Notes under the pieces: model-generated | What the model was told of the DNA's origin: nothing | Databases searched by the model: none | What the model saw: the letters and a program-made list of their open reading frames with translations, nothing else | Translations under genes and position numbers: made by a program | DNA from: Mobula hypostoma | Taxonomy: Eukaryota | Assembly (NCBI RefSeq): GCF_963921235.1 | Contig: NC_086108.1 | Span: forward strand, 83,206,001 to 83,270,000 | DNA length: 64,000 bases | Direction of reading: 5' to 3' | In this document: positions 4,500 to 63,358 of the stretch, piece by piece | Numbering within the stretch: the stretch's first letter is position 1 | Layout: every line of letters starts with the position of its first letter

Positions 4500-5172
4500 A
4501 GGAGGTACCTGAAAAAGTGGTCACTGAGAAATTGCAAAGACCATCTTCATGGTCTTCTGCTGCTGTAGCTCATCCACTACAAGGTTTAGCATGTTGTGTG
4601 TTCAGAGATACTGTTCTGCACAGCACTGTTGTGACACATGGTTATTTGAATTACTATCACTTTCCTGTCAGCTTGAACCAGTCCGGTCATTCTCCTCTGA
4701 CTTCTTTCATTCACAACATGTTTTCATCCACAGAACTGCTGTTCACTGGATTTTTTTTTTGTTTTTTTTACACCATTCTCTGTAAACTCCAGAGTGTTGT
4801 GTGTGAAAATCACAGGAGATCAGCAGTTTCTGAGATACTCAAAGCATCCCATCTGGCACCAACGAATCAATCCAGTCAAAGTCACTTCGAGCACATTTCT
4901 TCCCCATTCTCGAGGAATTCTGCCAATGCTGGAAATTCAAGCAACACACATCGAAGTTGCTGGTGAACGCAGCAGGCCAGGCAGCATCTCTAGGAAGAGG
5001 TACAGTCGATGTTTCCCCATTCCCCATTCTGATGTTTGGTCCAAGCAACAATTGAACCACTTGACCAAGATGGCATGTTTTTATACATTGAGTTGCTGCC
5101 ACCTAATTGGCTGAATAGATAGTTGCATTAACAAGCAGATGTACAGTGTACTAATAAAGTGGCAATCGAGTG
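4500..5172 (-). mobile_element. Non-autonomous Tc1-like element
   Basis: Same family as 2474-3222; right TIR ctaataaagtggcaatcgagtg|TA. Confidence 0.7.
4911..5019 (-). mobile_element. Short PLE terminal-repeat-derived insertion
   Basis: Reverse complement of 34418-34520; 11-bp TSD ttccccattct at 4900-4910 and 5020-5030. Confidence 0.85.
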
Positions 5173-6671: not shown

Positions 6672-6780
6672 ACAAGAGATTCTGTTGATGCTGAAAGTCT
6701 AGAGAAACACACACAAAATGCTGGGGAATTCAGCAAGTCACGCAGCATCTAGGGATGGGAATAAGGAGTCAATGTTTCAG
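6672..6780 (-). mobile_element. Older PLE terminal-repeat fragment (another at about 6045-6175)
   Basis: acacacaaaatgctggggaattcagcaagtcacgcagcatc..agtcaatgtttcagg is homologous to 35106-35210. Confidence 0.65.
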
Positions 6781-10757: not shown

Positions 10758-11272
10758 GAGACAGATTTTTCTGCTGGATCCTAAAGAACTTCCCAGTGTC
10801 CTGGCTCAATACTCACCCCTGTCACTTTGCATGCCTACTGAACATTATTCTTGACTAGATTCCTTTGTTAATCATAGATAGTGCCTTTTTTCTCATGGAA
10901 TCTCTTGTTCTACTTGGAATAAATTCCTGCTGACCATTATGGATCAGCTGTCTGGATATCTGCCACTGTCATGAACACTGCTGCTGAACTGTATCTTAGC
11001 TTCTTTTCCTAGTCCACCTTCAACACCACAATCATTGCACTTATTTCAGATGAAGACAGTCAATGTGGTCCTATGGTGCTTACCATCAAACTGAATCTGG
11101 AAATCTATCATATGGTCATTACCTTCTAGGTGATCTTTAACCACAAGATCAATTAATCCTTCCTCATGACCAGATGTAAAATAGCCTGTTCCTGGGTAGA
11201 TTCCATAATATCCTGTTCTATGAAGCTATCCCAAACGCATTCCACAAATCCTTCTTCAACAATACCCTTGCC

Positions 11273-12203
11273 ACACACACAAAATGCTGGACAAACTCAG
11301 CAGGCCAGGCAGCCTTTATGGAAAACAGTAAACAGTCAATGTTTCCGGCTGATATCCTTCAGAGTGCAGGGTGACTTGGACAGGCTGGGTGAGTGGGCAG
11401 ATGCAGTTTAATGTGGGTAAATGTGAGGTTAACCACTTTGGTGGCAAGAACAGGAAGGCAGGTTACTATCTGAATGGTGTCAAGTTAGGAAAAGGGGAAG
11501 TACAACGAGATCTGGGTGTCCTTGTTCATCAGTCATTGAAAGTAACCATACAGGTACAGCAGGCAGTGAAGAAAGCTAATGGCATGTTGGCCTTCATAAC
11601 AAGGGGAAGTTGAGTATAGGAGCAAAGAGGTCCTTCTGCAGTTGTACAAGGCCCTGGTGAGACCACACCTGGAGTATTGTGTACAGCTTTGGTCTCCAAA
11701 TTTGAGGAAGGACATTCTTGCTATGGAGGGAGTACAGCGTAGGTTCACTGGGTTAATTCCAAGGATGGCGGGAATGTCATATGTTGAAAGATTGGAGTGA
11801 CTGGGCTTGTATACACTGGAATTTAGAAGGATGAGAGGGGATCTGATTGAAACATAAGATTATTAAGGGATTGGGCACGCGAGAGGCAGGAAACATGTTC
11901 CCAATGTTGGGGGAGTCCAGAACCAGAGGCCACAGTTGAGGAAAAACCTTTTCACATAGAGGGTTGTGGATCTGTGGAATGCTCTGCCTCAGAAGGCAGT
12001 GGAGGCCAATTCTCTGGATTCTTTCAAAAACGAGTTAGATAGAGCTCTTAAAGATAGCGGAGTCAAGGAATATGGGGAGAAGGCAGGAACATGGTACTGA
12101 TTGTGGATGATCAGCCATGATCACAGTGAATGGCAGTGCTAGCTCGAAGGGCCGAATGGCCTTTTCCTGCACCTATTGTCTGTTGTCTATTATCAGGACA
12201 GTC
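11273..12203 (-). mobile_element. PLE-repeat mini-element split by a CR1
   Basis: The halves ...ccttca (11361) and tcaggac (12193) rejoin to the antisense HHR core; TSD aatacc(c/t)ttgcc at 11261-11272 and 12204-12215. Confidence 0.75.
11362..12191 (+). mobile_element. CR1 LINE 3' 830 bp
   Basis: QGDLDRLGEWA, QFNVGKCEV, RPHLEYCVQLWSP; (CTATTGT)n tail. Confidence 0.9.
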
Positions 12204-22473: not shown

Positions 22474-25400
22474 TTACATTAAATGAAAATATCGAATAAA
22501 AGGTCCCCAAATCTGTTCAAATTTAAATGAAGAATCATAAAGGTTACTTCTAATTTTCTCCAGATTCAAACATAAAATCGTCTGAGAAAACCAAAAAAAG
22601 GTAGTTGGAGCATTAAGCTCTTTCCAATGTTGTAAAATACATCTTTTCGCCATTAAAGTAAGAAATGCAATCATTCTACGGGCTGAAGGGGAAAGATTAC
22701 TAGAAATTTTAGGTAGTCCAAAGATAGCAGTAATAGGGTGAGGAGAGATATCTATATTTAATACCTTAGAAATAATATTGAAAATATCTCTCCAAAAAGT
22801 TTCCAAAGTAGGGCAAGACCAAAACATATGAGTTAAAGAGGCTATCTGCCCCGAACATCTATCACAGAAAGGATTAATATGCGAGTAAAAACGCGCTAAC
22901 TTATCTTTGGACATATGTGCTCTATGAACCACTTTAAATTGAATTAGGGAATGTTTAGCACAAATAGAGGAAGTATTAACTAATTGTAAAATCTGCCCCC
23001 AATCATCCACAGAAATGGTAAGCCCCAATTCCTGTTCCCAATCTACCCTAATCTTATCAAATGGAGCTTTCCTAAGTTTCATAATAATATTATAAATCAT
23101 AGCCGATGCACCTTTCTGACATGGATTAAGGTTAATTATCGAATCTAAAATATATATAGGAGGAAGCATTGGAAAGGAAGAAAGTATAGTACTTAGGAAA
23201 TTTCTAACTTGTAAATATCTAAAAAAATGTATTCTTGATAAGTTATATTTATTAGATAATTGTTCAAAAGACATAAGGGAACCATCTAAAAATAAATCCA
23301 AAAACCGTAAAATACCCTTAGTCTTCCAAGTTTGAAAAGCGCGATCCGTAAAAGAGGGAGGAAAAAATATGTTGCCTAAAATAGGAATCGCTAACCCGAA
23401 TTGATTAAGATCAAAAAATTTTCTGAATTGAAACCAAATGCGCAAAGCATATTTAACTATCGGGTTAGAGACCTGCTTAAGGCGTTTCGAATCAAAAGGA
23501 AGAGAGGAACCTAAAATAGAACCAAGTGTATAACCCTGAACAGATTGTAATTCCAATGCTACCCATTTAGGAATAGATAGTATGTCCCGGTCAAGTAACC
23601 AAAATTTCATATGTCGAATATTAATAGCCCAATAATAAAATCTAAAGTTAGGTAATGCTAAACCTCCATCTCTCTTAGCTTTCTGTAAATGTATTTTACC
23701 CAGTCTCGGATTCTTATTCTGCCAAATAAATGAAGAAATTTTAGAGTCAACTTTATCAAAAAAAGATTTAGGAACGAAAATTGGTAATGCCTGAAACACA
23801 TATAAAAATTTTGGCAAAAAAAACATCTTAACTGCATTAATACGACCAATCAAAGTTAAATATAAGGGAAACCATTTAGATGAAAGTTGAGTAATATGGT
23901 CTATTAATGGTAAAAAGTTAGTCTTAAATAAATCTTTATGTTTACAAGTAATTTTAATCCCAAGATATGAAAAGTAATTATTAATCAATTTAAATGGAAA
24001 TTTATAATATAAGGGAAGATGTTTATTAATCGGAAAAAGTTCACTCTTACTAAGATTTAATTTATAACCTGAGAAAAGACCAAATTGTGCTAATAACTCT
24101 AAAACAGCAGGAATGGATCTCTCAGGATTAGAAATATATAAAAGTAAATCATCAGCATAGAGTGATAATTTATGGGACTTTAATCCCCGAGTTATCCCAG
24201 TAATATTTGAAGATTCTCGAATAGCAATTGCAAGAGGTTCTAATGCAATATCAAATAATAGGGGACTAAGAGGACAGCCTTGTCGAGTACCACGAAAGAG
24301 AGGAAAAAAAGGTGAGTTTAAGGAGTTAGTACGAACCGAGGCTACAGGGGAGTGATATAACAGTTTAATCCAGGATATAAATTTCAAGCTAAAATTAAAC
24401 ATTTCAAGCACCTTAAATAAATAAGGCCATTCTACTCTATCAAAAGCTTTCTCGGCATCTAAAGAAATAACACACTCAGGAACATTTTGTGAGGGAGTAT
24501 AAACGATATTTAACAATGTACGAATATTATAAAAAGAGTAACGACCTTTAATAAAACCCGTTTGGTCTTCCGAAATAATAGAAGGAAGTACTTTTTCTAG
24601 TCTATTTGCTAATAACTTAGAAAAAACTTTAGAATCAACATTTAATAAAGATATTGGTCTATAAGATGCACATTGAGCAGGGTCTTTATCCTTCTTTAGT
24701 ATTAAAGAAATTGATGCTCTATTAAAAGATTCCGGAAGTTTACCAAGTTTCAAAGAAGCCTCAAAAACCTTATAGAGCCAAGGAATCAATAAAGAAGCAA
24801 AACATTTATAAAATTCAACGGTAAACCCATCAGGGCCAGGAGCTTTCCCCAGATTCATAGAAAAAATAACATTCTTAATCTCATCCATTGTAATGGAAGT
24901 ATCTAATAAAGAAGACATATCCTGTGAAATCTGAGGGAAGTCTAACTTATCTAAAAAATCATTCATATATTTAGAATCTCGAGGAGACTCTGATTGATAT
25001 AAAGAAGAATAAAAATCACAAAAGGTTTGATTAATCCCCACATGATCCAATATCAATCGATCATTTTGGTTATAAATCTGATTGATTTGAGATTTAACAT
25101 AATTAGATTTCAATTGATTAGCCAGCAGCTTGCCAATTTTATCACTGTGAACATAAAAATCACTTCTTGTTTTCTTTAATTGGTTTACAATCGAGGACGA
25201 GAGTAGTAAACTGTGTTCCATTTGAAGTTCAGTTCTTTGTTTGTATAGCTCCTCAGAAGGAGCCATAACATATTTCTTATCAATTTCTTTAATCTTGTCC
25301 ACAATTGCCATCTCCTCCTGCTTCTGTTTCTTCCTCAAAGCAACGGAATACGAAATAATCTGACCCCGAATATAGGCTTTAAAAGTGTCCCAAAGAGTGT

Positions 25401-26250
25401 TAACCGAAATATCTTCTGTATGGTTAATTGTAAAAAAAAGCTCAATCTGTTCATTCATAAAATTAACAAAGTCCGAGTCCTGAAGCAACAGCGAATTAAA
25501 ACGCCATTGTCTATTGTTTGGTATATTGGCCATAATTTTAATAGAAAGCTTAAGTGGAGCATGATCCGAAATGGTTATAGAATCATAATCACATTTAATC
25601 ACTGAAGGAATGAGACGAGAATCAATGAAAAAATAATCAATTCTTGAATAGGAATGATGAACATGTGAAAAGAAGGAAAAATCTTTTTCCTGAGGATGCA
25701 GAAAACGCCAAATGTCCGTCGACCCAGAATCAGAAAGGAAAAAATTTATCAAATTTGCAGATTTATTAGGTAAAGTCCGTAAAGGAGCCGAACGGTCCAA
25801 AGCTGGAGATAAACAGGTATTAAGATCTCCGCCCCAAATCAATGAAAACTCGTTCAAATTCGGAAACTGATCAAACAATGATTTATAAAATTCCGGACAA
25901 TCCATATTAGGAGCATAAACATTAACCAAAACTACTTTTTTATTAAATAGTAAACCACTAACCAGTAAAAATCTACCATTCGGATCAGAGATAATATCCT
26001 GTTGTATAAAAGTAACTGAGGAGTCTATAAAAATAGAGACACCTCGAATCTTAGCATTGGAGTTCGAATGAAATTGTTGTCCCTTCCAGAATTTGAAAAA
26101 ACGTAGTCTGTCCCCCCTCCGTACATGGGTCTCTTGTAAAAATAAAATTTGTGCTTTAAGTCTCCGGAACACTTTAAAAACTTTTTTCCTTTTAATAGGA
26201 TGATTAAGACCATTAGTATTCCAGGAGACAAAATTAATAATAGACTCCAT
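22474..26250 (-). CDS. L1 ORF2p (APE endonuclease, reverse transcriptase, CCHC), 1258 aa from MESIINF
   Basis: SWNTNGL, LQETH, NVYAPN, GDLN, SRIDY, SDH; PGPDG, YRPISLL, QGCPLSP, YADD; CDRC..HMFWSC; no internal stops. Confidence 0.97.
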   Translation of the reverse strand: MESIINFVSWNTNGLNHPIKRKKVFKVFRRLKAQILFLQETHVRRGDRLRFFKFWKGQQFHSNSNAKIRGVSIFIDSSVTFIQQDIISDPNGRFLLVSGLLFNKKVVLVNVYAPNMDCPEFYKSLFDQFPNLNEFSLIWGGDLNTCLSPALDRSAPLRTLPNKSANLINFFLSDSGSTDIWRFLHPQEKDFSFFSHVHHSYSRIDYFFIDSRLIPSVIKCDYDSITISDHAPLKLSIKIMANIPNNRQWRFNSLLLQDSDFVNFMNEQIELFFTINHTEDISVNTLWDTFKAYIRGQIISYSVALRKKQKQEEMAIVDKIKEIDKKYVMAPSEELYKQRTELQMEHSLLLSSSIVNQLKKTRSDFYVHSDKIGKLLANQLKSNYVKSQINQIYNQNDRLILDHVGINQTFCDFYSSLYQSESPRDSKYMNDFLDKLDFPQISQDMSSLLDTSITMDEIKNVIFSMNLGKAPGPDGFTVEFYKCFASLLIPWLYKVFEASLKLGKLPESFNRASISLILKKDKDPAQCASYRPISLLNVDSKVFSKLLANRLEKVLPSIISEDQTGFIKGRYSFYNIRTLLNIVYTPSQNVPECVISLDAEKAFDRVEWPYLFKVLEMFNFSLKFISWIKLLYHSPVASVRTNSLNSPFFPLFRGTRQGCPLSPLLFDIALEPLAIAIRESSNITGITRGLKSHKLSLYADDLLLYISNPERSIPAVLELLAQFGLFSGYKLNLSKSELFPINKHLPLYYKFPFKLINNYFSYLGIKITCKHKDLFKTNFLPLIDHITQLSSKWFPLYLTLIGRINAVKMFFLPKFLYVFQALPIFVPKSFFDKVDSKISSFIWQNKNPRLGKIHLQKAKRDGGLALPNFRFYYWAINIRHMKFWLLDRDILSIPKWVALELQSVQGYTLGSILGSSLPFDSKRLKQVSNPIVKYALRIWFQFRKFFDLNQFGLAIPILGNIFFPPSFTDRAFQTWKTKGILRFLDLFLDGSLMSFEQLSNKYNLSRIHFFRYLQVRNFLSTILSSFPMLPPIYILDSIINLNPCQKGASAMIYNIIMKLRKAPFDKIRVDWEQELGLTISVDDWGQILQLVNTSSICAKHSLIQFKVVHRAHMSKDKLARFYSHINPFCDRCSGQIASLTHMFWSCPTLETFWRDIFNIISKVLNIDISPHPITAIFGLPKISSNLSPSARRMIAFLTLMAKRCILQHWKELNAPTTFFWFSQTILCLNLEKIRSNLYDSSFKFEQIWGPFIRYFHLM

Positions 26251-26975
26251 AAATCCTAAAGTCAACCCATAACAAGGAGGATTGACAATAGGCGCGACCC
26301 ACAAACCCGGAGAGGAAACAGAACATACAAAAGATACCGGGGAAAAGGACGCAACCAATACTTCAATAATGTATATAGCCCAAAGAGAAACAAACTAAAA
26401 CGTGAAGCCCCTCCCACCACCCCCCACCCCAAGACCCCAAGGCGAAATCTAAAGCAGACCCGCCAGAAAGAAGCAAGCGCTAAAACTACCCCCATGACTT
26501 CCGGTATACGCTCCCTAAAAAAAAGGTATAAATATGAAAAGGGTCAGCTAATTGTAAAACAGTAAAAAAATAAGTAAAAAAAAGTTAGCTCAATTAAAAT
26601 ACACACAGAACAGAACAAAAGCCGGAAAGTATATATTAAAAAAAAACCACAATAAACCTCAAACTCATGAATAGACACAGCAACAGAAAAAAAAATAGGA
26701 TTATTAACATAAAATGATTATAAAAAGCAAAACAGAATAAAATTTAAAAAAAAACTACAAAATTTAAGGCCGCACAGGAAATACGTAAGATGACAAAAGG
26801 GAAGTAACCACTCAGAATCCCCTGGGAAAAGAAAGAAATGACGCAGTTAAAAAGAAAGTTTAGCAGCCATATTAAGAAATCGAAAGTAAACTTTTCTGCC
26901 CAAATAGGGCACAGAAAAGTTAAAACCAACCAATTCACAGCCTCCGATCAACGGAGAAAATTTAAAAAAAGGCAA

Positions 26976-27884
26976 TTAAGATGTTGAAGATGAAAGTTGA
27001 TCCAGATAACTCTGGGCATCCGATGGAGAATCAAAAAAACGAAGGGCTCCATCTAACATGCGAATCCTTAGACGTGCAGGGTACAGCAGCGCTGGTCTTA
27101 AATCCATCTTATAGAATTCCGACATCACGGATCTGTAACGGACCCGTTGGTCCCAGATTGGTTTACTGAAATCTTCCACGAATCGGAACTTAAGATCCGA
27201 AAAATCAATGAAACCTTTAGATCGAGCGAATCGAAACAGTCTCTCCTTGTCTTGAAAGTAATGAAAACGTAAGATAACATGCCTCGGTCTATCTGACCTA
27301 GACGAGTATGATGGGATTCTGTGAACACGATCCAGTAACGGTGGTTGGTCAGGAAATACAGTAGGGAATGCATCTTTTAAAAGTTGGGAGAAATATTTCA
27401 TAGGGTTGTTAGCTTCCACGGCTTCCCTGACGCCAATCATTCGTAAATTCTGCCGTCGCATTCTAGATTCCAAGTCAGAGTTTTTAAAAGTCAAAAAGTC
27501 AAGTTTCTTCTTCATTACATTAATTGTTTCTTCGACTTTCCCCATCTTAAGCTCACTTTGTTGCGCGGATTTTTGAAGATCAGATATAGCCGACTGATGT
27601 TCCGCAATACATGTTTGCATCTTATCAATTAAATCGGCAATTTTCTGGAACTTAGTTGAGATTTCCGTATGAATCAGGTCTTTAACAAAGCCCATAATTT
27701 CTGTACGAATCATCTCCCTAACAGAGGTTGAAATTTCCCTCTGAATTAACTCCGATATCGCTTTCAAAGTCACCGGTGATTCAGTCGGAGGGAGATCCGT
27801 AGCTTTCGGTTTAACCGGAGGTTTACCATCCTTGCCGTCTTTCCCGTTCTTAGACATAGCCGATATTAAAGTATAGCTGACCAT
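26976..27884 (-). CDS. L1 ORF1p (coiled coil, RRM, CTD); start at 27884 or 27857
   Basis: Heptad region followed by DLESRMRRQNLRMIGV, LDRVHR, PRHVILRF, EDFS, LLYPARLRI. Confidence 0.93.
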   Translation of the reverse strand: MVSYTLISAMSKNGKDGKDGKPPVKPKATDLPPTESPVTLKAISELIQREISTSVREMIRTEIMGFVKDLIHTEISTKFQKIADLIDKMQTCIAEHQSAISDLQKSAQQSELKMGKVEETINVMKKKLDFLTFKNSDLESRMRRQNLRMIGVREAVEANNPMKYFSQLLKDAFPTVFPDQPPLLDRVHRIPSYSSRSDRPRHVILRFHYFQDKERLFRFARSKGFIDFSDLKFRFVEDFSKPIWDQRVRYRSVMSEFYKMDLRPALLYPARLRIRMLDGALRFFDSPSDAQSYLDQLSSSTS

Positions 27885-30868
27885 AGAGAGAAAAAACTCA
27901 GAGGTAATGGAGCGAGTCAAGAACGCGACTTCACTCCATGAGCGCTACCGGAAGTCTCCCACATATCTCAACTCCATTTTATCATCCCTGGTTCAATACC
28001 TTACCACCTACATCCACGACACTTCACATGCGCTTGATCTCCTCAACAATTTTCAACTCCCAGCCCCTGACTGCCTCATTTTCACCATGGATGCCCAGTC
28101 ACTATATAGTCAAGAAGGCCTTAAAGCTCACTGCTTCTTTCTCACAGCAGACCTGACCAGTTCCCCTCCACCAGCACCTTCCTTCATCTGGCAGAAGTGG
28201 TCCTCACACTCATCAATTTCTCTTTCAACTCTTCCCATTCTTTCCAGTCTCGTGGTGTAGCCATGAGCACCCACATGGGCCCCAGCTATGCTTGCCTTTT
28301 CAATAGCTATGTGGAACAGTCCATGTTCCAAACCTTCCCTGGTTATGCTTCTCAACTCTTTCTGTGCTACATTGACTGAGCTTGTCAATTTCATCAACTT
28401 TGCCTCCAATTTCCACACTGCCCTCAAATTCACTTGGTGTATTTCTGAGACCTCTCTCCACTTTCTCAATCTCTCTGTCTTTATCTGTGGAGACAAAATG
28501 TCTACTGATTTCTTTTATAAACCTACCAACTCCCATAGCTATCTTGATTATATCCCTTCCCACACCATCTCCTTTAAAAATGCCATACCCTTTTCTTAGT
28601 TCCATCATCTCCACATCATCTGTTCCCAGGATGAGGGTTTCCTTTCCAAGACATTACAGATGCCCTCCTTCTTCAAAGAATGGGGTTTCCATAACTTCAC
28701 CATTGATGGTGCCCTCAGCTGCATCTCCTCCATTTTCCAGACATCCACCCTTACCCCATCTTTCCACCACCTTAACAGAAGAGTTTCTCTTGTCCTCATC
28801 TACCACCCCATGAACTTCAGCATCTCCACAACTTCCACTATTTTCAGCGTAACCCTATCGCCAAATACACCTTTACCTCCCCCCACCTCCACTTTCCAAA
28901 AGCATCGCTTCCTCTCTGATTCCTTTGTTCATTCATCCCTCCCCACTAATTTTCTTCCCGACACTTATCAGGCAAGCAGACGTGTTATACCTGCCCTTTC
29001 ACCTCCCTGCTCACCTCCATTCAGGGCCCCAAAAAGTCCTTCCAGGTGAGGCAAAGTTTCATCTGTAAATGGTCGTCTAATGTATCTGTGCTCCTGATGC
29101 TCCTTCCTCTACATTGGTGGGACCGAACATAGATTCAGGGACCACTTTGTCAAGCACCTTCCCTTCATGCGCAAAAAGCAGGATTTCCCAGCGGCCAAAC
29201 ACTTTAACTTCAATCTTCATTTCCATTCTTATATGTTGGTCCATGGCCTCCTCTACTGCCATGATGAGGCCACTGTCAGGCTGGAGGAACAACACCTCAT
29301 ATTCTATCTGGGTAGCCTTCAACCTGATGGTATGAGCATCAACTTCTCCAACTTCTTTTATTTTTCCCCTCCTCCTTCCTTCTATTTCCATTCCACACCT
29401 TGGCACCCCTCTTGCCTCTTCTCTTCTCTTTATCTGCCTATCACCTCCCCCTGATGTCCCTCCTTTTTTGCTTTTCCCCGTGGTCCACTCTGCTTTCCTA
29501 TTGCATAGATTCCTTCTTCTCCAGCCTTTTACCTTTTCCAGATATTATCTCACAGCACCTTACTTCTTCCACCCTCCCCAACCAGCTGGTTTCACCTATC
29601 ACCTAGCTCGTAGTCCTTCCCCTTCCCTCACCACCTTATTCTGTCCTCTACCTCATTATTTTACAAAGCTGATGAAGGGCCTTGACCTGAAACATTGATT
29701 GTTTATTCACTTCTGTAGATGCTGTCTGACCTGCTGAGCTCCTCCAGCGTGTTGTCTGGATCTGCAGCATCTCTTGTGTTCGTGATGTTGATTCTTATGC
29801 TGATTCCATAGAGGTACAGTGATAAGAAGGTTGAGAAAGGACAGTTAATGGCAATTAGACAGTGGTCCCTTTGCCCATGTTTGAACTAATGCCATGTAAC
29901 TTCCTGGGTCTGAAATCAATGCTGAGTATAGATAGACACGTATGTGGTGAGATAGAGTTGATTTCTGTGCTATGACTTCCTAGGACACCAATAGATAGTT
30001 AATCTCTGGAAATCTCCACCCAACAGTGCTGTAAAGACTCAGTCACAGAGTATATTCAGGGACTGTTACATATTAAAAGAATCAAGGGCTATAAGCACAG
30101 TGCTGAGGTAAATTATCAGCCATGATCTTATTGAATGGTGAAGCTGGCCCGGGGAACCAAATAATATACTTTCGGTTCTAATTCATATGTTCTTGAATGA
30201 AATTTATATCCACATTGCCATTCATCTGAATAAATCCCTGAGAGAAAAGACATTGGAAAGACATTTCCTGCCATCTATCTGTTTTATTTATCTCACATAT
30301 CTTTTAGAGTTCTTCACAACTGATTTTATCATGTCTAATGAATCAAAACTATCATCCAGCAGCTAACATATTTGTAGAGTTTAACTGTAAGACCCAGTCA
30401 CTGCCTCCTATGAATTCTAATCTTCCTTCCTCATTTATTTTCTATGCAATTTTACAGTAGAGGTCATTGGATAAATTAAATTCTCAATGGAATGAGCAAT
30501 GTACTGTATCAGGAAGATATGTGGAAATATTAAAGCCCACTGTGTGATACATTTACCTCAGTTCCAGGCCTCCCCTATCTAATTTATTTTATTTTCCTTC
30601 ATTAAAAACATCGCTAAATATTTTGCCTGGAAAATGTAATTATTTCTCCATCTTACAATTTTAAATTGAACTGTGGAGAGATGACTGAGGAATGAGCAAA
30701 TACCTCCCTATTTTGATTGAATTTTTGAAAATACTGACTGGAGATCTATTCGATGGTTTAAAAGCTATATTTTTATCGTTTGAGCTTTGGTTGGCTCAAA
30801 TAATAACTCCAAGTTCATTTATTGTGCGATTTGCACAGTGTCTAAAGAACAGACAGTTACTGAAATTG

Positions 30869-30947: not shown

Positions 30948-31733
30948 CAGTGGTATGCCTTTAGGAACATTTCACCAATCTCCTATAAATGTCCATGGGG
31001 AGAAAGGAGGTAAAATAAGTACAATTCCACTAATTTAAAATATTATCCATGCAGAAGGCTGCACTAATAAATTCAAAGGCATTCTACCATATTTTTACCA
31101 TGAAAAATATTCAGTGGTTAATGAGTGGTATTGCTGAAGTCTTGGGTTAAGCATGCAAACATTGTTTGAAGAATGACTGCACATCTATTGCTGTTCATTA
31201 AAAAAATGTGGAAAATTGCCTAGGTTTGTCTTGATGAGGCCAACAGAGCTATTTACCATGCAATTAACTACTGTACTCTGGGTCATTAACAAAATGATGG
31301 ATGTTATCTAAAATAGTGCTGTGAAGCAGCACTTACCTCCAGTAATCTGATCACCGTGGCCCAGATTACATTTCACCAAGACTACGCAGATCCAGTCCTC
31401 ATTACAGACTTGGTCCAAACACCTGGATTCCAGAGCTGAGGTGAGATTGACTGTGCTTGACATTGAAACAAAATGGGATAAAATGTGACATCAAGAAGCC
31501 CTGGCAAAACTAAGGTCAGTGGGCTTTGAGAGGAAAACTTTGGAGCTAGGTACAGCAAGGCTGCACAATGGCTGAAATCTGTACCATCTACAAAATATAC
31601 TTCAGCTACAGTACTGTGCAAAAGTCTTAGGCTTATGTAAAACAAAGCTCTGGAACACATTCGAAGTGATTGCGCAACCACCAACTGCGACTCCAGCCTT
31701 GAACTCCAGGCCGGGTCTTTATGTGCTGCTATT

Positions 31734-34097
31734 GTGACTCCCGCCTCCCCTTCCCCCACCACCACTCTGCAATCCCATCTCCTTCAGATCCCACCGTCAG
31801 CTCCTGGGCCCTCAGAGGCTCCATCTTCCTCTCACCCCAACCCTCCCGTCTCCATTGACACCCCCAGCCTCCCCCCTCCCCCCTCTAATCCCAGCTCTCA
31901 TCCGTGCCGGGTCTTTACCATCCCCTCCGACCTTCAACTGTCGGAGGCAGAGCGCTCTGTCCTCAGTAAGGGCCTCACGTTTGTCCCCCTTCGCCCACAC
32001 CTCAGCGAGTTCCGTGTTTGCCACGATGCGGAACTTTTCTTCCGTCGTCTCCGTCTCCGAGCCTACTTCTTCGGCAAGGACTCTTCCACGCCCACCGATG
32101 ACCCCTTCTCCCGTCTTCAACCCTCCTCTTCTTCATGGACACCCCGCTCTGGTCTTCTGCCTGCTCTGGATCTCTTTATTGCTAACTGCCGGCGGGACAT
32201 CAACCGTCTCGACTTCACCGCACCTTGTCCCCATTCCAACCTCACTCCTTCGGAACGCTCTGCTCTCCACTCCCTCCGCACTAATCCTAACATTATTATT
32301 AAACCCGCTGATAAAGGGGGTGCTGTTGTAGTCTGGTGTACTGACCTCTACCTTGCCGAGGCACAGCGACAACTCGCGGATACCTCCTCTTATTTACCCC
32401 TCGATCGTGACCCCACTAAGGAGCACCAGGCCATTGTCTCCCACACTATCACCGACTTTATCCGCTCAGGGGATCTCCCATCCACTGCTACCAACCTTAT
32501 AGTTCCCACACCCCGCACTTCCCGTTTCTACCTCCTACCCAAGATCCACAAACCTGCCTGTCCTGGCCGACCTATTGTCTCAGCTTGCTCCTGCCCCACC
32601 GAACTCGTTTCTGCATACCTCGACACTGTTTTATCACCCCTTGTTCAATCCCTTCCGACCTATGTTCGTGACACTTCTCATGCTCTTAAACTTTTCGATG
32701 ATTTTAAGTTCCCTGGCCCCCACCGCTTTATTTTCACCATGGATGTCCAGTCCTTATATACTTCCATTCCCCATCAGGAAGGTCTCAAAGCTCTACACTT
32801 CTTTTTGGATTCCAGACCTAATCAGTTCCCCTCTACCACCACTCTGCTCCGTCTAGCGCAATTAGTCCTTACTCTTAATAATTTCTCCTCTGGCTCCTCC
32901 CACTTCCTCCAAACTAAAGGTGTAGCTATGGGCACCCGTATGGGTCCTAGCTATGCCTGCCTTTTTGTTGGGTTTGTGGAACAATCTATGTTCCGTGCCT
33001 ATTCTGGTATCTGTCCCCCACTTTTCCTTCGCTACTTCGACGACTGCATTGGCGCCGCTTCCTGCACGCATGCAGAACTCGGTGACTTTATTAACTTTGC
33101 CTCCAACTTTCACCCTGCCCTCAAGTTTACCTGGTCCATTTCCGACACCTCCCTCCCCTTTCTAGATCTTTCTGTCTCTGTCTCTGGAGACAGCTTATCC
33201 ACTGATGTCTACTATAAGCCTACTGACTCTCACAGCTATCTGGACTATTCCTCTTCTCACCCTGTCTCTTGCAAAAACGCCATCCCCTTCTCCCAATTCC
33301 TCCGTCTCCGCCGCATCTGCTCTCAGGATGAGGCTTTTCATTCTAGGACAAGGGAGATGTCTTCCTTTTTTAAAGAAAGGGGCTTCCCTTCCTCCACTAT
33401 CAACTCTGCTCTCAAACGCATCTCCCCCATTTCACGTACATCTGCTCTCACCCCATCCTCCAGCCACACCACTAGGAATAAGGTTCCCCTGGTCCTCACC
33501 TACCACCCCACCAGCCTCCGGGTCCAACATATTATTCTCCATAACTTCCGCCACCTCCAATGGGATCCCACCACTAAGCAAATCTTTCCCTCCCCCCCCT
33601 CTGCATTCCGCAGGGATCACTCCCTACACAACTCCCTTGTCCATTCGTCCCCCCCATCCCTCCCCGCTGATCTCCCTCCTGGCACTTATCCGTGTAAGCG
33701 GAACAAGTGCTACACATGCCCTTACACTTCCTCCCTTACCACCATTCAGGGCCCCAAACAGTCCTTCCAGGTGAGGCACCACTTCACCTGTGAGTCGACT
33801 GGGGTGATATACTGCGTCCGGTGCTCCCGATGTGGCCTTTTATATATTGGCGAGACCCGACGCAGACTGGGAGACCGCTTTGCTGAACATCTACGCTCTG
33901 TCTGCCAGAGAAAGCAGGATCTCCCAGTGGCCACACATTTTAATTCCACATCCCATTCCCATTCTGACATGTCTATCCACGGCCTCCTCTACTGTAAAGA
34001 TGAAGCCACACTCAGGTTGGAGGAACAACACCTTATATTCCGTCTGGGTAGCCTCCAACCTGATGACATGAACATCGACTTCTCTAACTTCCGCTAA
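31734..34097 (+). CDS. PLE polyprotein: RT + Cys-rich linker + GIY-YIG endonuclease (N-terminus probably missing; frame opens at GTG)
   Basis: KPADKG, YLLPKIHK, MDVQSLYTSIP, GVAMGTRMGPSYA, RYFDD, PFLD, YKPT; CKRNKCYTC; VIYCVRCSRCGLLYIGET. Confidence 0.92.
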   Translation: MTPASPSPTTTLQSHLLQIPPSAPGPSEAPSSSHPNPPVSIDTPSLPPPPSNPSSHPCRVFTIPSDLQLSEAERSVLSKGLTFVPLRPHLSEFRVCHDAELFFRRLRLRAYFFGKDSSTPTDDPFSRLQPSSSSWTPRSGLLPALDLFIANCRRDINRLDFTAPCPHSNLTPSERSALHSLRTNPNIIIKPADKGGAVVVWCTDLYLAEAQRQLADTSSYLPLDRDPTKEHQAIVSHTITDFIRSGDLPSTATNLIVPTPRTSRFYLLPKIHKPACPGRPIVSACSCPTELVSAYLDTVLSPLVQSLPTYVRDTSHALKLFDDFKFPGPHRFIFTMDVQSLYTSIPHQEGLKALHFFLDSRPNQFPSTTTLLRLAQLVLTLNNFSSGSSHFLQTKGVAMGTRMGPSYACLFVGFVEQSMFRAYSGICPPLFLRYFDDCIGAASCTHAELGDFINFASNFHPALKFTWSISDTSLPFLDLSVSVSGDSLSTDVYYKPTDSHSYLDYSSSHPVSCKNAIPFSQFLRLRRICSQDEAFHSRTREMSSFFKERGFPSSTINSALKRISPISRTSALTPSSSHTTRNKVPLVLTYHPTSLRVQHIILHNFRHLQWDPTTKQIFPSPPSAFRRDHSLHNSLVHSSPPSLPADLPPGTYPCKRNKCYTCPYTSSLTTIQGPKQSFQVRHHFTCESTGVIYCVRCSRCGLLYIGETRRRLGDRFAEHLRSVCQRKQDLPVATHFNSTSHSHSDMSIHGLLYCKDEATLRLEEQHLIFRLGSLQPDDMNIDFSNFR

Positions 34098-34393
34098 GGC
34101 CCCACCTCCCCCTTGTACCCCATCCATTACTTATTTTTATACACACATTCTTTCTCTCATTCTCCTTTTTCTCCCTCTGTCCCTCTGAATATACCTCTTG
34201 CCCATCCTCTGGGTCACCCCCCCCCCTTGTCTTTCTTCCCGGACCTCCTGTCCCATGATCCTCTCGTATCCCCTTTTGCCTATCACCTGTCCAGCTCTCG
34301 GCTCTATCCCGCCCCCTTTTGTCTTCTCCTATCATTTTGGATCTCCCCCTCCCCCTCCAACTTTCAAATCCCTTACTCACTCTTCCTTCAGTT

Positions 34394-34429
34394 AGTCCTG
34401 ACGAAGGGTCTCGGCCTGAAACGTCGACT
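34394..34429 (+). ncRNA. Minimal type I hammerhead ribozyme
   Basis: agtc-CTGACGA-agggtctcggcct-GAAA-cGTC^gact: stem I agtc/gact, intact core, palindromic ACGT stem III; predicted cut after 34425. Confidence 0.85.
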
Positions 34430-35195
34430 GCACCTCTTCCTACAGATGCTGCTTGGCCTGCTGCGTTCACCAGCAACTTTGATGTATGTTGCTTGAATTT
34501 CCAGCATCTGCAGAATTCCTGTTGTTTGCTCTGTAAAGCAAAGATGCTTTTTAAAGTAATGGAATGAAAAGTTCAAATATCAAAAGAAACTATAAAGAGC
34601 AGTAAACAGTAAAAATCTAAATTGGATTAATATTTGGTGTGACTATCCTTTGCTTTTAAAACTGCATCAATTCTCTTTGATCCACTGTCATGCAGTTTTA
34701 TTTAAAAAAATGACTAGTAGGTTGGTCTAAGTATCTTGCCACAGTTCTTCTGCAGATTTTGGCTGTCTCATTTGCTTTAGCTTCTCGAAGTGATCCCAGA
34801 GAGCCTCAATGAATGTTGAGATCAAGGCTCTATGGAGGGCATGCCATCGGAAACTATATAAAAAATCTAGGGTGCCTAAGATTTTTGCACAAATCTGTAG
34901 TTCTTCTGAGTACACCGACAGTATGTCCCAAAGCCGTGACTTGCACTACTGAGAAGGATAAGGGATTCAGTCACATGGGAGCACCACTGGCACAAGAGGC
35001 TGAAGATACTAGAATGTGGAACAATAAATAAATTGCTTGAAAATTCAAAGAGTCAAGTAGTAACTGGGAGGCAAAGGGTTTACAAAAAGCACCACCATAT
35101 TCAACACAAAATAATCTGCAGATGCTGGGATCAAAGCAACACTCACAACACGCTGGAGGAACTCAGCAGGTCAGGCAGCATCCGTGGAAACGATG

Positions 35196-35231
35196 AGTCG
35201 ACGTTTCGGGCCGGAACCCTTCGTCAGGACT
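35196..35231 (-). ncRNA. Minimal hammerhead ribozyme
   Basis: Minus strand reads agtc-CTGACGA-agggttccggccc-GAAA-cGTC^gact. Confidence 0.85.
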
Positions 35232-35292
35232 GAAGAGGGAAGGGGCAGACACCACAGACACAGACACAGACACCACTGCCCCTTCCCTCTTC

Positions 35293-35328
35293 AGTCCTGA
35301 CGAAGGGTTCCGGCCTGAAACGTCGACT
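35293..35328 (+). ncRNA. Minimal hammerhead ribozyme
   Basis: agtc-CTGACGA-agggttccggcct-GAAA-cGTC^gact. Confidence 0.85.
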
Positions 35329-35902
35329 CATCATTTCCACGGATGCTGCCCAACCTGCTGAGTTCCTCCAGCATGTTGTGAGTGCTACCACCATATTCAA
35401 CTGCCCTTCCAAGTCACACAATGTCCCAACTTGAAAATAAATTGGTTTACTTGATTATCAGATGATCTAAATCCGAAACTCCATACACAACTGTTTCAGG
35501 ACTGTATCATTTCAAAAGCACAGTTCACCACCTTCTTGAGGATAATTAAAGATGGACGATAAATGCTGGCTTCACTATGGTCCTGAGATACAGAAAGATG
35601 AATAAGTAAAGCAAAATATAGAAATAACACTCTGAAATACTCTACAACATCAGAATCAGAATCAGATTTATTATAACTGACATATTCCCTGAAGTTTATT
35701 GTTTTGCATGGCTTTACAGTGCAATGCATTAATAAAACAATTAAACTGCTTATGCTAAATTGAACACTGCTTGTGCTCTGCTGTGCCCTCCAATGTACAT
35801 TATATACAATTGAACTCTGACTCTTCACCCCTTGAACTTGGAGACACATGAGAAGTGAACTGCTTAACTGTCAAACTCAATCCAATGCTTTAAAGGATTT
35901 TG

Positions 35903-60530: not shown

Positions 60531-63182
60531 AGTTATTTATCATTTCATTTTAAAATCTTCTTTATTAATTTTTAAAGATCAACAAAAAATACATTAAGGT
60601 AATTGTCAACATGTCAATATGTACAATGAATTAAATTACAAAACAACTGATTAACAATAATGATACAAAAAAATAAAGTGTTAAGCCATACAAGCTTCCA
60701 TAAAAGAAAAACATCAATCTGCTAACTCAAATCCATTTAAACAAAAATCAGAAGGAAACCATCTTAATTAACTCAAATCAGATGATAGCAGCTGGCAAAT
60801 GAACCCCACCTTTTCTCAAAATCAAATCAAGGATCAAAAGTTCAACTTCTGCTTTTCTCCAAACCAAGACATAGCATCACCTGAGAGAACCACTGTATCA
60901 AATTGGGAGCAGAGGCATCTTTCCATTTCAATAAAATAGCCCTTCTGGCCATTAATGTAACAAATGCAATTACACGTTGGTCTGATATAGAAGTACCATG
61001 AATATATTGAGGGATTATACCAAACAAAACTGTTAATTTATTAGGTTGTAAATTTTTAAAGCTTTAGAAATTGTAGAGAAAATAGATTTCCAAAAAATGT
61101 TTCAATACAGAACACGACCAAAACATATGTGTCAATGTAGCTGTCTCAGTTTTACATCTATCACACTGACTATCAACATTAGGAAACATTTTAGACAGTC
61201 TCTCCTTTGTCAAATAGTAATGATGTGCAATTTTAAATTGAATTAAATAGTGACTGGCACAGATCGAAGAAGAGTTAACCAACTTCAAAATTTGCAACCA
61301 ATCCTGTTATCAAGGTCATGTTAAGCTCTCTTCCCCAATCTTGCTTAATCTAAAGTGAAGGGTAATTATGCTGTTGTAACAGTGAATTATAAATTTTCCC
61401 AATAAAACCTTTCACTAAAGGGTTCATTTTTAAAATAATATCTAACAGGTCAGAATCCTGTATATTTGGAAAATTACTTAAATATTCTTGTAAGAAATGT
61501 CTGACCTGAAGATATTGCAGGAAATGTGAATACGAGAGAGAGTGTTTAGTTACTAAATTCTCAAAAGACATCAATCGGCCATCTTGGAACAGATCCATGA
61601 AGGAATAAACTCCTTTATTCCTCCAAAGAAAAACTGCTTAATGAAGGTTTAAATAAATAATTTCGATAAATTAAACTAAGTTTAAATTTTTTGAGGTTTA
61701 AAAAATTACGAAACTGGTACCAAATTCAAAATGACTACTGAATCATAGGATATAAATTTAGATTAGCAATTTTGGCCATTTGTACAGGTAAAGAAGCTCC
61801 TAATAACGAGGTTAAGTGAAACTGTTTCACAGCTTTCAATTCCAAATCAGCCCAAGGTAGTCATTCATTCTTAACAGCCCAATATAACCAAAAACACATA
61901 ATGTATATCAACAGCCCAATAATACATTCTTTGATTAGGCAGGGCAAGACCTCCATATTTTTTTAATTTTTGTAATGATATTTTCCAACCTGATCAAAAA
62001 ACTTTAGTTTAAAAAAAGGGATATTTTGAAATATATATAAAAATTTTGGTAAAATCATCATTTTAACTGCATGAATTCGGCTGACTAACGAAAGTGTAAG
62101 TGCATTCCATCTACAAAGTAATTGTTTCATAAAATCCACTAAAGGAACCAAATTAGCTCTATAAAGGTCTCTATGATTTTTAGTGATAATAATACCTAAA
62201 TATTTAAAAGAGTCCGTAACTCTAAAAGGAATGTCATCATATATAGAAGCACAATCATTTAGGGGAAATAATTGACTTTTATGAAGGTTTAGTTTATATC
62301 CTGAAAAATTTCCAAATTCATTTAATAGTTTCAATAAACTAGGAATGGATTCGTCAGGATTCGAAACATTATGCTGACGATCTCTTAGTTAAAGGGAGAT
62401 CTTATGAATAGTTCCATTTATGAAAATTTCACGGATATCTTTAGCTTCACAAAGTGCAATGGCCAAGGGTTCCAGCACCAAATTAAATAACAAGGGACTT
62501 AACAGACATCCTTGTCTCATACCCTGCGGAAGTCCAAAAAAAAAGATCTGCAATTATTAGTAATAACAGTAGCAAAAGGGCTTTTATATATCATTCTAAT
62601 CCACTTAAAATTAATACCAAAGTCAAATTTCTCTAAAACATTAAATAAGTATTTCCATTCAACTCTGTCAAGTGCCTTTTCAGCATCAAGAGAAACAACA
62701 CATTGGGGAGACTTAGAAAAGGATGAGTTATAACATTTAACAGTCTCCCAGTATTAGAGAAGGAATAACGGCCCTTTACAAAACCTGTTTGGTCCTGAGG
62801 GATATTTTAGCTAGAATATTCTCCAGTCGATTAGCCATTATTTTTAAAAGAATTTTAGCATCCACATTTAATAATGAAATAGGTCTATATGAAGCACAGT
62901 CAGTTGGGTCTTTATCCTTCTTAAGAATTAAAGAGATAGAAGTTTCATAAAATGTGGGAGGTAACTATCAAAAAAGAATCTTTAAGCGTTTCCAACATGT
63001 ATGGAGAAAGCAATTTTACAAATTTTTTGTAAAATCCTACAGAATAACCAACAAATCCAGGAGCTTTACCAGATTGCATTGAAAGAATAGCTTTCTGAAT
63101 TTTGTTTTCAGTAATTGGAGTATCAAGAGTTTGTTGATCTTCAACAGAAATTTGAGGAAAATCAATCTTTTATAAAAAGGCA

Positions 63183-63358
63183 ACACACATCAAAGTTGCT
63201 GCTGAACGCAGCAGGCCAGGCAGCATCTCTAAGAGGTACAGTCGACGTTTCGGGCCGAGACCCTTCATCAGGACTAACTGAAAGAAGAGCTAGTCTCACC
63301 AGCAACTTTGATGTGTGTTGCTTGAATTTCCAGCATCTGCAGAATTCCTCATGTTTGC
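63183..63358. mobile_element. Inverted PLE-repeat mini-element inserted into the L1
   Basis: Antisense arm with HHR, then sense arm; TSD tttt(a/g)taaaaaggca. Confidence 0.85.
63239..63280 (-). ncRNA. Minimal hammerhead ribozyme, same strand as the mknk1 pre-mRNA
   Basis: Minus strand reads cagttagtc-CTGATGA-agggtctcggccc-GAAA-cGTC^gactg. Confidence 0.85.

Follow-up and report, generated by a model that had tools for sequence, protein, structure and literature searches.

The insertion of 281 bases at positions 35106-35386 of the window, by which we mean the whole 64,000-nucleotide stretch of Mobula hypostoma DNA analysed here, carries the core of a hammerhead ribozyme on each of its two strands. 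This raises the question of whether it represents a hairpin element in its own right, with paired ribozymes that serve a purpose, or the debris of a more conventional retroelement. Our analysis points to the latter. With a probability of roughly 0.68, we interpret it as a single stub-sized insertion consisting of two 3' ends of a Penelope-like element (PLE) placed head to head, which likely arose through two-ended priming and is likely inert now.

Structure of the insertion

The insertion contains two inverted arms of 109 nt each (35140-35248 and 35276-35384), separated by 27 nt and differing at five positions (35151/35373, 35172/35352, 35173/35351, 35191/35333 and 35208/35316), and it is flanked by a perfect direct repeat (Table 1). 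In these counts our analysis agrees with the initial annotation. The description of the whole 281 bp as a palindrome holds for the inverted arms; the unit as such is not symmetric, as it includes an unpaired extension that had gone unmentioned, of 34 nt, or 37 nt if the three bases held in common with the target-site duplication (TSD) are counted. These last three bases of the left TSD copy are also the end of the PLE tail, and are likely to reflect a microhomology used in priming. Similarly, the (CAGACA)n-like loop does span 27 nt between the arms, but the match to the family runs on through 35249-35250, leaving only 25 nt as non-family filler. The insertion has no coding capacity, as previously stated, the longest Met-started frame being only 36 codons, and it is predicted to fold as a rod on either strand, with minimum free energies of -228 (plus) and -240 (minus) kcal/mol.

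Table 1. Features of the insertion and its immediate flanks, in window coordinates
Feature	Position	Strand	Basis or remark
TSD, left copy, 15 bp	35091..35105		Present once at the empty site of two other organisms
PLE 3' "tail", on the left arm only	35106..35139	-	Agrees with the end of the family as found in long copies
Tailed arm, 5'-truncated 3' pseudo-LTR of a PLE, pointing left	35140..35250	-	Sister copies extend to the end of an RT/GIY-YIG ORF
Type I hammerhead motif, minimal, with the G10.1-C11.1 pair intact; cut predicted at 35200/35199	35196..35231	-	
Junction filler, 25 nt, re-copies of the left arm's last 5 bases with 1-4 added bases between	35251..35275		Unique in the genome
Arm without tail, an inverted and 5'-truncated copy of the pseudo-LTR that points right, with 4/5 of the CpG changes	35276..35384	+	
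Type I hammerhead motif, minimal, with C11.1 -> U; cut predicted to follow 35324	35293..35328	+	
Two extra bases between arm and TSD, absent from family and target	35385..35386		TSD offset +2
TSD, right copy	35387..35401		Direct repeat; empty-site comparison

Derivation of the arms from a Penelope-like element

A genome search with the left half of the insertion recovered 48 matches from 40 scored candidates, which are 84-98% identical when the self-match is excluded. The subfamily has at least 4,410 copies in the genome, this being the count of an exact 27-mer (0 for the reversed control), and a 16-mer core is found 29,650 times (once for the reversed control). In five long copies with the same 3' end (L002, L010, L017, L027 and L030) the arm runs on over about 400 nt to reach the end of an ORF, which is 74-83% identical to the ORF at 31641-34097 on the plus strand of the window. 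The latter is an uninterrupted frame of 818 codons with DKG and YFDD motifs, a GIY-YIG-type end and a match to the Pfam reverse transcriptase (RT) profile RVT_1 (E 1.2e-5, below the curated cut-off). The continuation of the long copies into an RT/GIY-YIG frame bears out the earlier attribution of the arms to a PLE, and the insertion is almost certainly a PLE insertion scar. A CX2-5CxxC motif in the linker between the RT and endonuclease domains marks the Neptune/Nematis-type clades of PLEs, as set out in PMC8557442; it is present at residue 685 of the window ORF, which represents a related subfamily and not the arms' own. By the definitions given in that source, sequence features place the putative source of the arms among the endonuclease-positive (EN+) PLEs of Neptune/Nematis type.

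Several other retroelements are found in the window. The PLE that contains the above ORF (31641-34514, plus strand) ends in a 3' pseudo-LTR with a hammerhead at 34398 and belongs to another subfamily, being 79% identical to the arms; its first Met is codon 367 and no 5' pseudo-LTR was found for it, so it is probably 5'-truncated. A further, very asymmetric head-to-head pair of PLE ends, of the same subfamily as this element, lies at 63180-63358, and additional pseudo-LTR fragments are found at about 4913-5015, 6672-6750, 11270-11360 and 29669-29755. The minus strand at 22474-27944 carries an L1-type LINE with both frames open, namely an ORF1-like frame of 322 aa (Transposase_22) and an ORF2 of 1306 aa (APE, RT and zf-RVT), which looks young and near full length.

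Reality and distribution of the insertion

Position 35090 joins directly to position 35387 in X9 record 24 and X11 record 9, contigs that belong to two other organisms. They therefore represent the empty site, where the 15-mer is single and about 6% of the letters in the flanking sequence differ. The insertion is hence real and lineage-limited, and the earlier reading of the 15-bp TSD as the mark of one insertion event is upheld. Both outer flanks are present without differences in contigs of X1, which may be the source sample, whereas a contig of organism B (X5) begins 26 nt inside the right arm, against a bridging threshold of 31 letters, and leaves the left flank uncovered; among the contigs compared at the locus none independently spans the centre of the palindrome. 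A fold-back artefact of assembly was rejected, given that the arms differ at CpGs, that a TSD and an empty site exist, and that the X1 flanks match exactly.

Assembly of the inverted arms

Comparable palindromes were sought in the genome as two facing cores, which yielded 56 places at a spacing of 40-70 nt and 63 at 0-39 nt; the two lists overlap by at least one place, giving about 118 short palindromes. Fifty places from the former set and 41 more from the latter (91 in all) were examined, and 25 of these were left out as other subfamilies or unalignable. The remaining 66 same-subfamily palindromes form a biased sample, in that the arms must pass the core exactly and be spaced within 70 nt. 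A tail was scored once in 61 of them, twice in one and not at all in four. A strict set of 55 palindromes was defined by setting aside six more as sub-subfamily members or indel artefacts. Within it, a TSD is present in 52 cases (38 of them of 12-16 nt, with a median of 14), and the tail-less arm is shorter at its outer end by a median of 36 nt.

The mechanism that we propose for the present locus, and consider probable there, is priming from both ends of the target. A PLE nuclease would have cut the target with a stagger of 15 nt, the stagger being evident from the TSD and the empty site and the enzyme being the presumed agent. One target end would have primed cDNA synthesis at the outer end of the tail and the other about 36 nt further in, both cDNAs would have ended after 110-148 nt, and the two ends would have been united by end-joining with several rounds of slipping and re-copying to give the 25-nt stutter. 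Decay of the arms at CpGs would have followed the insertion. The use of two start sites is suggested by the one-sided tail, and the scar set as a whole fits the anole PLE protein as described in PMC11167929, which in vitro cuts and extends both target strands and has two RT start sites bracketing the tail.

The alternative that survives best, though we regard it as rather unlikely, is a fold-back in which a tailed cDNA, having stalled and stuttered, folded onto itself and served as its own template as far as the tail. Such self-priming has been argued for head-to-head Penelope repeats in PMC3846280, and it is possible at 35106-35386, where the reach of the tailed arm exceeds that of the tail-less arm by only 2 nt. 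Across the strict set, the inner ends of the arms lie within 4 nt of each other in 13 palindromes, a symmetry that would also suit a fold-back, while the tailed arm reaches further in 24 and the tail-less arm in 18. In 16 of the last group the tail-less arm extends at least 10 nt beyond the tailed one, which argues against its having been copied from the tailed cDNA, since a copy cannot outrun its template. Furthermore, the lengths of the two arms of a locus are uncorrelated (rho -0.07, p 0.59), and a fold-back gives no account of why the copy should end at the second RT start site described in PMC11167929. Post-insertion deletions could also have produced unequal arms.

The two arms of a locus have 40 derived non-CpG variants in common as against 6.2 in permuted pairs (maximum 16 in 2000 permutations), and 63 common CpG states as against 31, suggesting that both arms of a locus come from one source RNA or locus. 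Common variants are also expected of a fold-back and, equally, of later gene conversion. Across the strict set the independence of the arm lengths favours two-ended priming over fold-back, and in combination with the common source variants it favours it over the self-priming of PMC3846280. Matches of the left-half search seemed to be truncated preferentially at 35250, which was discarded as query bias; in 9 of 110 arms the inner end falls at position 0, which is the edge of the search pattern. A literature search for twin priming in PLEs, or for a two-ended origin of their inverted ends, found no paper, and one for hairpin template switching, polymerase theta fillers and inverted repeats of shark Neptune elements found nothing relevant.

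The stuttered junction

The five bases with which the left arm ends are found again at 35255, 35261 and 35267, giving a four-fold stutter of the arm end. The presence of three extra copies of the 5-mer in 25 nt has a shuffle P of 1.2e-4 in a test that was devised after seeing the sequence. Repeats of three-fold or more are seen in three of the 91 junction centres. The junctions of the strict set are overlapping or blunt in 20 cases and have 1-4 added bases in 17, 5-9 in eight and at least 10 in ten. A longest-match test for a local template gave p 0.75 for the filler at 35251-35275, which is not among the three that reached p<=0.05 out of 11 fillers of at least 8 nt (six further fillers, from other sub-subfamilies or indel artefacts, were left out). 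Fillers copied from nearby arm sequence are seen in L033, L037, L039 and L102, that of L037 being 22 nt copied from arm sequence further out; the centre of L039 contains a third hammerhead fragment, and the filler of L038, 41 nt long, matches nothing in its locus over more than 8 nt.

Iterated templated filler is a trait of polymerase theta end-joining, while the Penelope RT is sister to telomerase. The loop might accordingly be viewed as a fossil of telomerase-like repeat addition, in which the PLE RT repeatedly re-copied 5-9 bases at the end of a stalled cDNA before this was joined to another, separately primed one. If that were so, the stub palindromes would constitute a genome-wide read-out of both two-ended priming and reiterative synthesis by the PLE RT. 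We consider this unlikely. The filler itself is directly seen, and a host repair polymerase would be a likelier author of it than the RT, although the sequence of the filler would fit both polymerase theta end-joining and the less likely reiterative copying.

The paired hammerhead motifs

A CUGANGA...GAAAC-GUC core starts at 35297 on the plus strand and at 35227 on the minus strand. On either strand the motif comprises a stem I of 4 bp, CUGACGA, an extra A, a stem II of 3-4 bp and GAAA, together with a loop-less, palindromic helix III that ends in GUC. The original claim of an intact hammerhead on each strand thus stands for the core boxes; it needs qualification in that the U for C at 11.1 on the plus strand leaves a G10.1-U wobble, and that stem I has just 4 bp in both copies through a subfamily variant. 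The cut positions predicted earlier agree with the sites that we recomputed from the sequence. Scanning the window against Rfam recovered no hammerhead at E<=1; the only matches, to microRNA hairpins, lie below the gathering score and were rejected as generic hairpin matches. Dimer cleavage of PLE hammerheads has reportedly been observed by Lunse et al. Whichever strand is read through, transcription would produce the antisense copy first, and this copy would be expected to sequester the sense hammerhead, in line with the masking proposed earlier; forcing the hammerhead fold has a predicted cost of 70 (plus) and 67 (minus) kcal/mol.

The five arm mismatches are all at CpG sites of the subfamily, four of them on the right arm. 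Among 53 palindromes (the strict set without two of low identity), the arms of a pair differ at 0.23 per CpG site as against 0.04 per other site, and the CpG inside helix III is altered in 13-20% of arms, the same as other CpGs. The 3' half-core, on which intactness was scored because the 5' half-core is fixed by the search pattern, is intact in 54 of 106 arms. Both arms retain it at 13 of the 53 loci, including the present one, as against 13.75 expected if the arms were independent. These sequence comparisons give no sign that the ribozyme pairs are maintained. In L002 and its sister copies, a motif readable on both strands, which we take to be TATA-like, lies just upstream of the hammerhead and about 28 nt upstream of a presumably initiator-like motif, which sits at the place of the 5' strand of stem I. 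The nine arm ends at position 0 noted above lie at this point. Both arms of the insertion end before the former motif.

These observations bear on the idea that the hairpin has been retained by the host, either as a conformational switch of its ribozymes or as a locus dedicated to making small RNAs against PLEs. It is true that a read-through RNA would form a near-perfect duplex of 109 bp, that a PLE with a near-complete ORF on the plus strand ends about 600 bp upstream, and that small RNAs are produced from Penelope copies in rotifers, as described in PMC3846280. However, the insertion is absent from two related organisms, decay is of the CpG type without any excess of intact pairs, the arms fall short of what we take to be the TATA-like motif, and the predicted barrier of 67-70 kcal/mol would leave no room for a switch, making this explanation highly improbable. 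The same decay and the same lack of doubly intact pairs in excess, together with the earlier reports of such pairs as PLE remnants, leave the suggested conformational switch, viroid-like ambisense RNA and dedicated siRNA source against PLEs without support, the switch facing in addition the predicted energy barrier. Incidental small RNA or double-stranded RNA from some of the many palindromes is possible. In viroid-like ambisense RNAs, ribozymes of both polarities each fold and cut in the replicating circular RNA. That identity was rejected, each sense motif here being predicted to be fully paired to its earlier-made antisense copy at 67-70 kcal/mol. The hammerheads are passengers of the pseudo-LTR, and a "hammerhead on each strand" arises automatically from inverted pseudo-LTRs, which calls for caution with such readings.

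One locus or a palindromic family

The initial annotation had also raised the possibility of a PLE-mobilised hairpin family and named a genome-wide search for the junction as the means of refuting it. An 18-mer across the left junction occurs once in the 3.48 Gb genome, and the centres are all different in the 66 same-subfamily palindromes examined. Taken together, these results suggest that every insertion builds the hairpin anew, with no copying of it as a unit, and they are at odds with the family. A non-autonomous palindromic family (retrozyme- or MITE-like) moved as a unit by PLE proteins can be practically dismissed, for although a whole unit was inserted with one TSD and has at each end the cis sequence used by the PLE RT, the single junction, the 66 distinct centres and the want of the head-to-tail tandem that defines animal retrozymes all go against it. 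An independent MITE-like family was likewise rejected, as it requires a recurring junction. Two cases of repetition were encountered. In another subfamily an identical centre is found twice on C2 (G000:C2:117525710 and 117526177), 467 bp apart, which is probably a local duplication. On C80, L011 and L013 have identical junctions about 100 kb apart; their flanks are in common, and they are therefore likely to result from local duplication and not from retrotransposition of the junction.

Comparison with known systems

The minimal type I hammerheads of metazoan PLE pseudo-LTRs, according to PMC4209133, depend on a dimer and show weak activity in vitro, and pairs of them that lie on opposite strands at a distance of 100-700 bp have been reported there as PLE remnants in Schistosoma. 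The motifs described here have the same conserved boxes, extra base between 9 and 10.1 and palindromic 15.2-16.2, as well as a helix I of 4-5 bp and a loop-less, palindromic helix III that needs a dimer. They differ in the length of helix II (7-8 bp in Schistosoma as against 3-4 bp here) and in the G-U at 10.1/11.1 of the plus copy. In the anole PLE described in PMC11167929, the hammerhead required protein for cleavage, and insertion did not depend on it.

The animal non-LTR retrozymes (10.64898/2026.07.22.740005; PMC7229834) resemble the insertion in being non-coding, in having a type I hammerhead and in their PLE ancestry. As described in the former source they are head-to-tail tandem units, whereas here a head-to-head, single-copy unit has a masked ribozyme; a retrozyme identity was rejected, as it requires a tandem of at least two hammerhead-bearing units and a single head-to-head pair is found.

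The layout of the insertion is already known and constitutes an ordinary PLE footprint, head-to-head inverted PLE insertions with a tail being described in PMC8557442 (Fig. 2) and PMC3846280. In common with the inverted insertions of EN+ PLEs, such as Pen2a_Av of Adineta vaga in PMC3846280, it has an inverted, 5'-truncated copy set head to head, a tail at one end (30-40 bp there, 34-37 nt here) and a TSD that encloses the entire unit (15 bp here). The locus displays all the features of such insertions that were tested, namely the pseudo-LTR source, the head-to-head arrangement, the single tail and the TSD. It differs in that its copies are only 110-148 nt long and hence without an ORF, in the length of the TSD (8-10 bp in the rotifer EN+ insertions described there) and in having a stuttered filler where those have a small palindrome at the junction. 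As one of about 118 or more short palindromic scars of a very abundant retrotransposon, the single element matters little. The scar set is of modest value for the open question of how PLEs build inverted ends, and its residual value is mechanistic, lying in the independence of the arm lengths and in the stuttered junction.

The nearest described process is, by analogy, the twin priming of LINE-1. As described in PMC11702581, both target ends are there primed on the RNA, a TSD of 12-18 bp is kept, and the inversion junction is end-joined with microhomology or added bases, as would be the case here. According to the same source, the parts of LINE-1 5' inversions derive from stretches of the RNA that lie next to each other and for the most part do not overlap, whereas both arms of the present insertion copy the same stretch from two putative start sites about 36 nt apart, and the result is a palindrome.
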